DNA of 64,000 nucleotides from a phage (GCA_011839185.1 GCA_011839185.1_3918.1); one strand, 5' to 3'. Numbered from the stretch's first letter, positions 1,395-3,330 are shown. Notes: generated by a model from the sequence alone, not told the origin. Numbers and translations: made by a program.

Positions 1395-1915
1395 GACCTC
1401 AAAGTTATATTAAATTTTGTATTACATTGAGTATAAAAATAAGCTATAACACCTGACTTGTCAACAGATTTTATAGCTTATTTGGCAGATTTTTTATAAG
1501 GCTACTGCCATCCTTCCATACATCACCTTACCTTACCTCACCTAACCATACCTAACCAAACTACACCATACAATACCTTGTTAAAAGACCCTCTTAAAAG
1601 GCCTTTTAAAAAGGTAAGTCTCATTTTAATGTAGCTGAGACTAACTACCCATACATTACCTTACCATACCAGACCTCACCCTACCTTAACTTACCTTACT
1701 CTATCCTACCAAACACCACTTAAAAACCCTCTTAGAAGACTCTTAAGTGATGTAATCGGATTTTTATGTAGCTCCGATTAACTACCCATACCAAGCCTAA
1801 CCTGACCGCACCAAACCTTACAACACCACACCATACCTGACCATACCAAACCTCATTAAAAGACCCTCTTAAAGACCTTTTAAAAAGGAGCCTCCGAAGA
1901 GGCTACCTAGTCAAC
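1395..1915. repeat. G-depleted (plus strand) C/A/T-rich tandem blocks with a conserved hairpin unit
   Basis: About 70-nt stretches almost free of G (e.g. ccatccttccatacatcaccttaccttacctcacc) alternating with conserved aaaagaccctcttaaagacc...taagtctcattttaatgtagctgagacta units. Confidence 0.6.
1876..1904 (-). terminator. rho-independent terminator (minus strand)
   Basis: Hairpin AGCCTCTTCGGAGGCT followed by T-run on minus strand, just downstream of the 1916-2356 gene. Confidence 0.5.
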
Positions 1916-2356
1916 TTAGAAAGGTTTTCTACGTTGCTTGTTAATGTTAGCTTTCATAGCAGCTAAATGGTTTTGCTGTTCAATCAGTCGTGAGCGTTCT
2001 TGATGGCTAAGTGCCATAGTGTTCACATTCTCAATCGCTTGAGTGGCTTGCTTTAAAGCGCGACCAATCTTACCAGACATTTTACGTTTTGCAATAGTTG
2101 CTTGATGCTTAGGCTCAACCACACGATAACCAACACCCATTGAAGCAACCAGATAAATCTTCTCTTCTTTAAGAAGCTTCTCAATAAACTTCTCAAGTCG
2201 GTTTAGACGTGTAAGCGCATAAGCCTTCATTTCATCTTCGTACTTAACAATGTCACCTTGATAAGTTGGCTTCACAATACCTAAGAAGGTATCCATCTCA
2301 GAGTGTGATACAGTGTCACCGTAACTAAACTTTGCTGCTAATGCTTTCGTATTCAT
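1916..2356 (-). CDS. hypothetical protein (146 aa)
   Basis: ORF with good coding continuity; no motif recognised. Confidence 0.45.
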   Translation of the reverse strand: MNTKALAAKFSYGDTVSHSEMDTFLGIVKPTYQGDIVKYEDEMKAYALTRLNRLEKFIEKLLKEEKIYLVASMGVGYRVVEPKHQATIAKRKMSGKIGRALKQATQAIENVNTMALSHQERSRLIEQQNHLAAMKANINKQRRKPF

Positions 2357-2358
2357 AA

Positions 2359-2961
2359 TTAAACGTTACCTTCTGAAATAACTTCTACAGAAAAACGACC
2401 AAAGCGTGGACGCCAATCACCTACACCACAAAGGTTACCAGCATTTTCCAGAACCATCAAGAGTTCCTCTTTGGTGATTTGCTCTTCATCGAACATCAAA
2501 CCGAACTCTACAGACCAATCACGGAAGATTGGACGGTAGCTCATAACTCGTGCTGTACCAATCTTAACAGACTTAGCATAGATAAAATCTGGATTCTTAG
2601 CAAGTTCTTGTGGGTTTGCTGGACAGTTCTTGATAGTCATTGGGAAGACTACATCTGTCAGCATAATGGCTCGGTCAATTACCTTACCAAGCTTGTTGAG
2701 CTTTGCACCAGACTTGATACAAGCCTCAATCATCTCACCGTTCATAACAAAACCTAGTTGCTCATCGTAGTAACAAGAGGTTACCAGTTGGCTTTCTGCT
2801 AAGAGCGCATAGTCTTCGTCAGTCTTTTTACGTTTACTGGACAGAGACTTGTGATATTTAGTCAGAGGGTTTAATGGGTCTGACAGTGTATCGTTATGGC
2901 TCAGGAAAGGACGAGTACCAGTGATTTTGACATTTAACAGTTTCATAGCATTTAGCTCCAC
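2359..2961 (-). CDS. hypothetical protein (200 aa)
   Basis: ORF abutting the previous gene; no motif recognised. Confidence 0.45.
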
Positions 2962-3330
2962 ACTTTAGTTGATTGTTAAGTTGTTTGTAAAGAACCCTCA
3001 ACAGAAGACTCTTTAGAAACTTGGTAGATTTTTAACGTGGCTACTACCATCCACCCATACCTCACCTCACTTAACCTCACCCTACCACACCAGACATCAC
3101 CTTACCATACAGCACCTTATTAAAAGACCCTCTTAAAGACCTTTTAAAAAGGTAAGTCTCATTTTAATGTAGCTGAGACTAACTACCCGCACTTTACCGC
3201 ACCGGACCTTACCGGACCGCACATCACCGCACTAAACCAGACATCACATTACCTGACCACACCAAACCAAACATCACATTACTTAAAAACCCTTTTCAAA
3301 GACTCTTAAGTGATGCTGGTGAGTACCCGT
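2962..3330. repeat. second copy of the G-depleted repeat block with the same hairpin unit
   Basis: Repeats units seen at 1395-1915, including taagtctcattttaatgtagctgagactaactaccc and the aaaagaccctcttaaagaccttttaaaaagg box. Confidence 0.6.

Follow-up and report, generated by a model that had tools for sequence, protein, structure and literature searches.

A probable type II VIPR locus with five guide RNA units in a Felix O1-like myophage

The stretch of phage DNA analysed here (GCA_011839185.1, 64,000 nucleotides (nt), referred to below as the window) belongs to a Felix O1-like myophage (Felixounavirus). It carries two intergenic regions composed of G-poor repeat blocks and hairpins on either side of two small genes, and this locus is very probably a complete type II VIPR (Viral Interference Programmable Repeat) system of the SUSP1 clade. 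The G-poor blocks are five vrRNA guide tracts and the hairpin is the pseudoknot of the vrRNA 3′ tail. The feature is already known, since VIPR was first described in preprints of 2026. Our analysis covered protein homology, repeat anatomy, covariation in the tails, the targets of the guides, the absence of self-targets and the association of arrays with vipr genes in unrelated viruses.

Vipr is described as a RAMP-family protein whose protomers, one to each repeat, assemble along vrRNAs of 9-16 GGY-NN repeats into a helical filament (bioRxiv 10.64898/2026.04.26.720920, 10.64898/2026.04.26.720927). It sequesters the GGY triplets through H17, D177, R138, W178 and R179 among other residues, while the NN bases pair with DNA of which every third base is skipped, and transcription is silenced. 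The vrRNA 3′ end is a conserved pseudoknot tail of ~40 nt, and the accessory protein Vap1 enhances protection. In phage SUSP1, vrRNAs are expressed as ~100-nt RNAs which co-purify with Vipr, silencing is programmable, and the natural targets of the SUSP1 clade lie in an E. coli phage satellite (bioRxiv 10.64898/2026.04.26.720920, 10.64898/2026.04.26.720927).

In the first 6 kb of the window every gene is oriented leftward. Between 1300 and 3600 the sequence has 244 matching phage records and shares 95% identity with Escherichia phage REP5. The two intergenic regions here, 1392-1915 and 2962-3379, enclose a cassette of two leftward genes (1916-2356 and 2359-2946, minus strand) and hold five blocks which are nearly free of G on the plus strand. 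The original prediction, made from the sequence alone, had described strand-asymmetric, G-depleted blocks flanking two leftward genes, and a scan of base composition by strand bears this out: across all 64 kb, 60-nt segments containing no more than one G are restricted to 1502-1586, 1640-1737, 3041-3111 and 3241-3300. Similarly, chains of ACC recurring at a distance of 5 nt are confined to the five blocks, which account for 32 of 38 ACC pairs at this spacing in the window. Blocks and hairpins together span 1484-3283 and nothing similar was found elsewhere in the 64 kb. Public records label the region merely as a 58-nt direct repeat, 'DR_4' (phage wV8), or as 'terminator' on two hairpins (phage ASO1B), and its repeats are undiscussed in the Felix O1 and wV8 literature. 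An Rfam search of 1200-3700, with E values up to 10, returned only chance matches resembling small nucleolar RNAs.

A strict 5-nt periodicity, unremarked in the original prediction, underlies the asymmetry. Tandem Repeats Finder, phase analysis and pentamer parsing show that every block is a repeat of the form [G/T/A]-G-[T/C]-N-N on the minus strand, with 12-19 units and zero phase slips. In the order of minus-strand transcription, the tracts of vrRNA1 to vrRNA5 contain 19 repeats (3189-3283), 12 (3057-3116), 13 (1788-1852), 14, two of them off-consensus (GATAG and GTTAA; 1651-1720), and 12 (1518-1577). A set of 60 distinct blocks taken from relatives shows G at the first position in 76% of repeats and C in none, G at the second in 98%, and a pyrimidine at the third (T 92%, C 8%); any base can occupy positions 4 and 5. 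The NN positions are hypervariable between phages whose flanking sequences are nearly identical, and the register is kept. Such a rigid register, with a triplet under constraint and a dinucleotide free to vary, suggested that an oligomeric protein binds single-stranded nucleic acid here.

Each tract is followed by a tail of 34-38 nt. The conserved module with a 7-bp hairpin reported in the original prediction has a perfect copy at 3122-3188 and a copy differing by one change at 1583-1650; its hairpin, AGTCTCA/TGAGACT, forms part of the tails of vrRNA1 (3151-3188, minus strand) and vrRNA4 (1613-1650, minus strand), assigned to class T4. With paired segments in parentheses, the vrRNA1 tail reads GG(GTAG)TT(AGTCTCA)G(CTAC)ATTAAAA(TGAGACT)TACC. 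Variants of the hairpin follow the other blocks. The vrRNA2 tail (class T1, 3023-3056, minus strand), GG(GTGG)AT(GGTAG)TAG(CCAC)GTTAAAAAT(CTACC), is identical to that of SUSP1 vrRNA1; the vrRNA3 tail (class T3, 1752-1787, minus strand) has the stem AATCGGA/TCCGATT; and the vrRNA5 tail (class T2, 1484-1517, minus strand) reads GG(AAGG)AT(GGCAG)TAG(CCTT)ATAAAAAAT(CTGCC), with GGCAG/CTGCC in the place of GGTAG/CTACC. The same four classes were distinguished among 62 tail sequences from relatives, whose 14 variants align without gaps. In this alignment an H-type pseudoknot pairs columns 3-6 with 17-20 (helix 1) and columns 9-15 with 28-34 (helix 2). Pairing is maintained in 92.9% of cells and 9 of the 11 pairs are changed on both sides; none of 500 shuffles equalled the observed value and slid alignments gave 27-36%. 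Covariation thus strongly supports the tail pseudoknot.

The two genes between the blocks encode the protein components. The first, vipr (2359-2946, minus strand, ATG at 2946), specifies a RAMP-family protein of 195 amino acids (aa) which is 97% identical to SUSP1 Vipr over its 195 aa and matches PDB entry 36pp_D, 'SUSP1 Vipr protein', with E=8.6e-128. In an open reading frame (ORF) listing the gene begins with the GTG at 2961 and would encode 200 aa; the start at 2946 agrees with SUSP1 and with the residue numbering of the solved structure. Of the residues discussed in the structure paper, H17, K33, R39, E71, M72, K82, G87, K88, R138, C173, D177, W178 and R179 are present. Residue 175 is V both here and in SUSP1, and the preprint text names T175. 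Directly downstream, vap1 (1916-2356, minus strand) encodes the 146-aa VIPR accessory protein, 99% identical to the SUSP1 gene product at the same position. Searches of Pfam, PHROGs and PADLOC with Vipr and Vap1 returned only families of unknown function (Vipr is phrog_4652 and has no Pfam family), and the same searches found no cas genes among the neighbours.

The gene order beside the DNA ligase gene, the promoter, the T1, T2 and T4 tails, the spacer modules, the GGY-NN tracts, the targets with a 1-nt skip and the targeted satellite family are all shared with the SUSP1 type II system. SUSP1, a Suspvirus, differs in having four vrRNAs, one upstream and three downstream of the genes, compared with two and three in the window, and its NN sequences are different; tail class T3 and a 19-repeat vrRNA are found in the window and not in SUSP1.

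A predicted sigma-70-type promoter (TTGACA-16-TATACT, 11 of 12 consensus positions; 3346-3373, minus strand) lies upstream of the first vrRNA, just beyond the range of the original prediction, and is kept in Felix O1, SUSP1 and IMG/VR relatives. The first half of the conserved module is an inter-vrRNA spacer, TTTTTAAAAGGTCTTTAAGAGGGTCTTTTAATAA (3117-3150, minus strand), repeated at 1583-1612 and 1858-1886. Its core TAAGAGGGT, with (C)TTTTAA, occurs at 1588-1596, 1726-1734, 1863-1871 and 3127-3135 and each spacer separating a tail from the following tract contains it. The promoter and terminator scan made no call in TTTTTAAAAGGTCTTTAAGAGGGTCTTTTAATAA. The spacer TTTTTAAAAGGTCTTTAAGAGGGTCTTTTAATAA/TAAGAGGGT could represent the T-run of a vrRNA 3′ end, a weak promoter (TTTAAA-N17-TTTAAT-like) or a processing signal. 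The sole terminator-like site in 1200-3700 is an intrinsic terminator after vap1 (1882-1904, minus strand), AGCCTC-TTCG-GAGGCT followed by CCTTTTT. At the edge of the locus, a 19-bp imperfect hairpin (1430-1483, minus strand) includes a TTGACA...TATACT site resembling a promoter, which would serve the 127-aa gene downstream. A further ORF encoding a hydrophobic protein of 48 aa (phrog_22006; 3380-3526, minus strand) is located between the ligase gene and the vrRNA promoter; Felix O1 is without it and the promoter there directly follows the ligase stop codon.

The NN strings of the guides also identify targets. The SUSP1 baseplate gene, used as a blastn query on 5426 complete E. coli genomes, revealed a satellite island in 474 of them (~9%). 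The island carries tape-measure and baseplate genes related to those of the phage itself. Targets were scored in 11 satellite loci (268 kb), comprising islands of ~11 kb with recombinase genes at both ends, by matching the NN strings with 0-3 skipped bases and using 300 shuffles of dinucleotide order as a control. The vrRNA1 guide was treated as vr1a (its first 12 repeats) and vr1b (its last 13). With a 1-nt skip, vr1a matches 21 of 24 NN positions in a satellite gene of ~235 aa (locus L162, 10996-11030), repeats 1-9 being perfect (18/18). The best match of vr1b (21/26) is antisense to the satellite tape-measure gene (L166, 8557-8594); its repeats 10-18 match at 18/18, that is, nine consecutive dinucleotides are perfect. 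The vr2 guide matches the ~235-aa gene at 21/24 (L167, 7222-7256) and at 20/24, with the first 10 NN perfect (L161, 11255-11289), and vr3 matches antisense to a satellite gene of 183 aa at 23/26 (L160, 8563-8600) and 22/26 (L169, 4728-4765). For each of these four guide segments, which come from three of the five vrRNAs, the best score, covering 81-88% of NN positions, was equalled by none of the 300 shuffles, and all the matches fall within the satellite. Skips of 0, 2 or 3 nt gave scores of 16-19, equivalent to background. The skipped base is the wobble position in the vr1b, vr2 and vr3 targets. Moreover, an apparent internal duplication of 30 nt in vr1 parallels an 18-nt repeat in its first target, these two sizes being what the 5:3 geometry predicts. 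No self-target was found in the 64-kb window, the part of the genome searched (~24 kb lie outside it), where the best matches score 16-19 and at most 19/28, again background. The targeted satellite proteins have no Pfam or PHROGs family.

Taken with the published work, these observations suggest how the locus would operate. Minus-strand transcription from the promoter at 3346-3373 would yield five vrRNAs of ~94-133 nt, two from upstream and three from downstream of vipr-vap1, each consisting of 12-19 GGY-NN pentamers and a tail of 34-38 nt folding as the pseudoknot. One Vipr protomer would occupy each pentamer, sequestering GGY and presenting the two N bases, and the joined dinucleotides would pair with double-stranded DNA, skipping every third base. 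The bound filament would then block transcription of satellite genes, an effect which Vap1 would enhance, and silencing of the satellite would protect the phage from a parasite using related tail genes. Two elements of this picture are inferred: production and loading of all five vrRNAs in this phage, and parasitism of the phage by the satellite.

Several points weigh against this assignment. Expression of the vrRNAs, the ribonucleoprotein, the filament, the 1-nt-skip code and silencing are carried over by analogy from SUSP1, with its 97% identical Vipr, and are not this phage's own; the published VIPR work (bioRxiv 10.64898/2026.04.26.720920, 10.64898/2026.04.26.720927) is moreover still at the preprint stage and leaves vrRNA biogenesis unaddressed. 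Single vrRNAs perhaps arise through weak promoters of their own or through processing sites in the spacers. The 19 repeats of vrRNA1 exceed the published range of 9-16, and this vrRNA looks like two 9-repeat guides fused under a single tail. First tracts of 17-20 repeats also occur in relatives L010, L015, L017, L028 and L030. The skipped base of the vr1a target corresponds to the first codon position in the annotated frame. Yet 3 of the 7 differences between this site in L162 (10996-11030) and its counterpart in L159 (11085-11119) lie at skip positions, which would fit the use of a different reading frame immediately ahead of the tape-measure gene. Finally, the 11 satellites contain no significant target for vr4 or vr5: the best match of vr4 (21/28) was equalled by 30 of 300 shuffles, and that of vr5, a weak candidate site (19/24; L170, 4480-4514) a short way upstream of the 183-aa satellite gene, by 17 of 300. 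Exact-pattern scans of IMG/VR gave three unrelated, probably chance, matches for vr5 and none for vr4.

Three other explanations were weighed. The G-rich transcript might act as a sponge or platform for host CsrA or Hfq, as the original prediction had proposed. It does contain many GG motifs in unstructured, C-poor RNA, its copy number varies among relatives, and the architecture is loosely like that of CsrB-type sponges. CsrA requires GGA, typically as ANGGA in loops. The minus-strand transcript of the two regions, which had been described as rich in both GGA and GGT, proves rich only in the latter (67 GGT against 6 GGA and no ANGGA), and it has no Rfam match. The solved contacts of Vipr are consistent with the strict 5-nt phase and the invariant G2/Y3; in unrelated viruses vipr and such arrays are found together, and target information resides in the NN bases. 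The sponge itself is highly improbable. The interpretation in the original prediction is mostly incorrect but holds on three points: the asymmetry implies that the minus-strand transcript functions as single-stranded RNA, the repeats are a binding platform for protein (Vipr in place of CsrA or Hfq), and the hairpin is a conserved structured unit. A little less so, though still very unlikely, is the proposal that the hairpin modules are terminators, attenuators or pause sites for the flanking genes and the repeats mere spacers. The two hairpins are annotated as rho-independent terminators in the ASO1B record, and the class T4 tail, a 7-bp stem with 3 G-C pairs and a 12-nt loop followed by TACC and TTTTT, could define a vrRNA 3′ end. 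However, the consensus scan does not call this hairpin and calls only 1882-1904, the stems are AT-rich with loops of 12-16 nt, the covarying pseudoknot pairs the loop with upstream bases, which a terminator does not need, and neither the GGY periodicity nor the target matches are explained. The T-run after class T4 tails may nevertheless have a secondary role in 3′-end formation.

The least probable explanation, to which we give almost no credence, is an element acting at the DNA level, whether an origin or R-loop primer, a primase or nicking array, a two-tetrad G-quadruplex or an antisense Rho-loading (rut) site. Such an element could be accommodated by the G-rich non-template strand downstream of a strong promoter and near replication genes; GG-N3 spacing could give two-tetrad quadruplexes, and the antisense strand, C-rich and G-poor over ~60-70 nt, is rut-like. 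None of these roles needs a strict, indel-free 5-nt register, however, and the pyrimidine at position 3 and the exclusion of C from position 1 are as in the Vipr pockets. The arrays are all sense to vipr, their NN bases encode matches to foreign genes, and they are absent or single-copy in close relatives which replicate normally. Pausing or anti-termination and nicking or priming, also raised in the original prediction, leave both the hypervariable NN positions and the link to one protein family unaccounted for and were set aside. Candidates considered earlier and dropped once VIPR had been identified were a TRAP-like ring, Shine-Dalgarno mimicry, sigma-70 pause elements, an R-loop origin, a two-tetrad G-quadruplex, an antisense rut site, T7-type primase sites, a pac or terminal-repeat element and BREX or type III restriction sites.

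The VIPR assignment can also be set against other repeat-based systems. The Cas7 filaments of class 1 CRISPR-Cas resemble VIPR in that a RAMP/RRM protein with a G-loop and a thumb polymerises on the guide with one protomer per register, the thumb flips bases out periodically, and the variable guide carries a conserved structured handle as a cap. VIPR has a period of 5 nt (three bases sequestered, two read), Cas7 one of 6 nt (five read). Unlike CRISPR, VIPR skips one target base in three and has no cas1/cas2, no array of identical repeats and spacers, no nuclease and no protospacer-adjacent motif; unlike class 1 CRISPR-Cas, it is phage-encoded and aimed at other mobile elements. In a CRISPR array, direct repeats of 23-50 nt that are almost the same in sequence are interspersed with unique spacers, and cas1/cas2 usually accompany them. 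A CRISPR array was rejected for the present locus: its conserved units (tail plus spacer) fall into four sequence classes, periodicity runs through the variable part as well, and Pfam, PHROGs and PADLOC found no cas genes among the neighbours. In the TRAP-trp leader of Bacillus, 11 (G/U)AG triplets with spacers of 2-3 nt wrap around a protein ring. The likeness lies in a triplet and 2-nt spacer repeated 11-14 times with one subunit per repeat, and this analogy led to a search for a dedicated oligomeric RNA-binding protein. TRAP differs from Vipr in its motif (GAG/UAG versus GGY), its unrelated fold and its ring rather than helical filament, and spacers are informative only in VIPR. ToxI, of type III toxin-antitoxin systems, consists of near-identical 36-nt repeats cut by ToxN and has no pentamer code or guide function; ToxI and phage pseudo-ToxI share with VIPR the tandem non-coding RNA units beside a small protein gene, the variable copy number and a part in conflict between elements.

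In 29 related IMG/VR loci the arrays are invariably on the strand of vipr and the genes, and every one lies downstream of the ligase gene; a complete genome of a relative has arrays at this locus only. Three architectures were observed: ~285 bp with one block and no genes between (Felix O1, Si3), ~430 bp with two blocks, and 1.7-2.0 kb in which 3-5 blocks accompany the two-gene cassette. The single unit of Felix O1, lying between the ligase gene and the next gene (L004 2413-2694, equivalent to Felix O1 57632-57913), comprises the promoter, a GGY-NN tract and a class T2 tail, and a tblastn search found neither vipr nor vap1 in the whole Felix O1 genome (L172 and L173). About half of the Felix O1-like phages are without vipr-vap1 and keep one or two promoter-vrRNA units: vipr at least 90% identical is present in 118 Felix O1-group records, compared with 231-244 records matching the repeat region. 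The pattern DGY (D, any base but C) is kept as well in orphan tracts (92%) as in vipr-linked ones (94%). Since some orphans match 22-23 of 24 NN positions of guides in vipr-bearing phages, the sequences indicate that the cassette has been lost repeatedly through recombination between flanking vrRNA units.

One of the satellites, in E. coli GN4751, contains its own 13-repeat vrRNA with a T1-like tail (L161, 6059-6123, minus strand), the stem of which shows compensatory changes (TGTCG...CGAC). No vipr was found in any of the 11 satellite islands, and a vipr-less vrRNA in the satellite is also noted in the preprint work (bioRxiv 10.64898/2026.04.26.720920, 10.64898/2026.04.26.720927). More speculatively, and on balance doubtfully, vrRNA1 might form one bivalent filament, with orphan and satellite vrRNAs being used in trans with the Vipr of a co-infecting phage or serving as decoys which titrate Vipr.

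Beyond this group, a scan of IMG/VR with the pattern (GGTNN)6GGT returned many unrelated viral contigs as well as plain microsatellites. The contigs carry up to 17 heterogeneous blocks of 9-19 pentamers, and a Vipr homologue was found nearby, within the fetched stretch, in 31 of 55 loci with heterogeneous arrays against 1 of 65 with microsatellites only. In two contigs the gene just upstream of the array ends with a motif like the C-terminus of the 195-aa protein. Unrelated contigs L055 (2217-3406), L045 (4602-5047, minus strand), L044 (3331-5318) and L133 have 12, 7, 10 and 17 blocks, respectively, right after distant vipr homologues; the blocks are delimited by AAGGAATGGTTTAATGAATTTAATTT in L055 and only by GGCTAATGG in L045.

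Elsewhere in the window, ~1.6 kb (45120-46766) has no ORF of at least 60 aa and is dense in short tandem repeats (periods of 10-12, 21 and 31-33), including CTTAACAATTT, TCTGTTAAGAA and TTGTTAGAAGGC. It is C-depleted on the plus strand at 46080-46144 and 46459-46568 and has no Rfam match, and may represent an origin, iteron or promoter cluster.

Recognition of the locus from raw sequence shows that scanning can pick out VIPR systems, but the one in the window is essentially the published one, with 97-99% protein identity. To this the present analysis adds an independent derivation of the association between arrays and vipr across IMG/VR, the covariation of the tail pseudoknot, predicted targets for the phage's own guides and the observation that repeated loss of the cassette has left familiar phages, Felix O1 among them, with orphan guides. 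The apparently fused guides of vrRNA1 and the orphan vrRNA units may lie outside what the VIPR preprints cover. More broadly, VIPR represents RNA-guided DNA recognition with a non-contiguous code and is a proposed ancestor of the CRISPR RAMP effectors.

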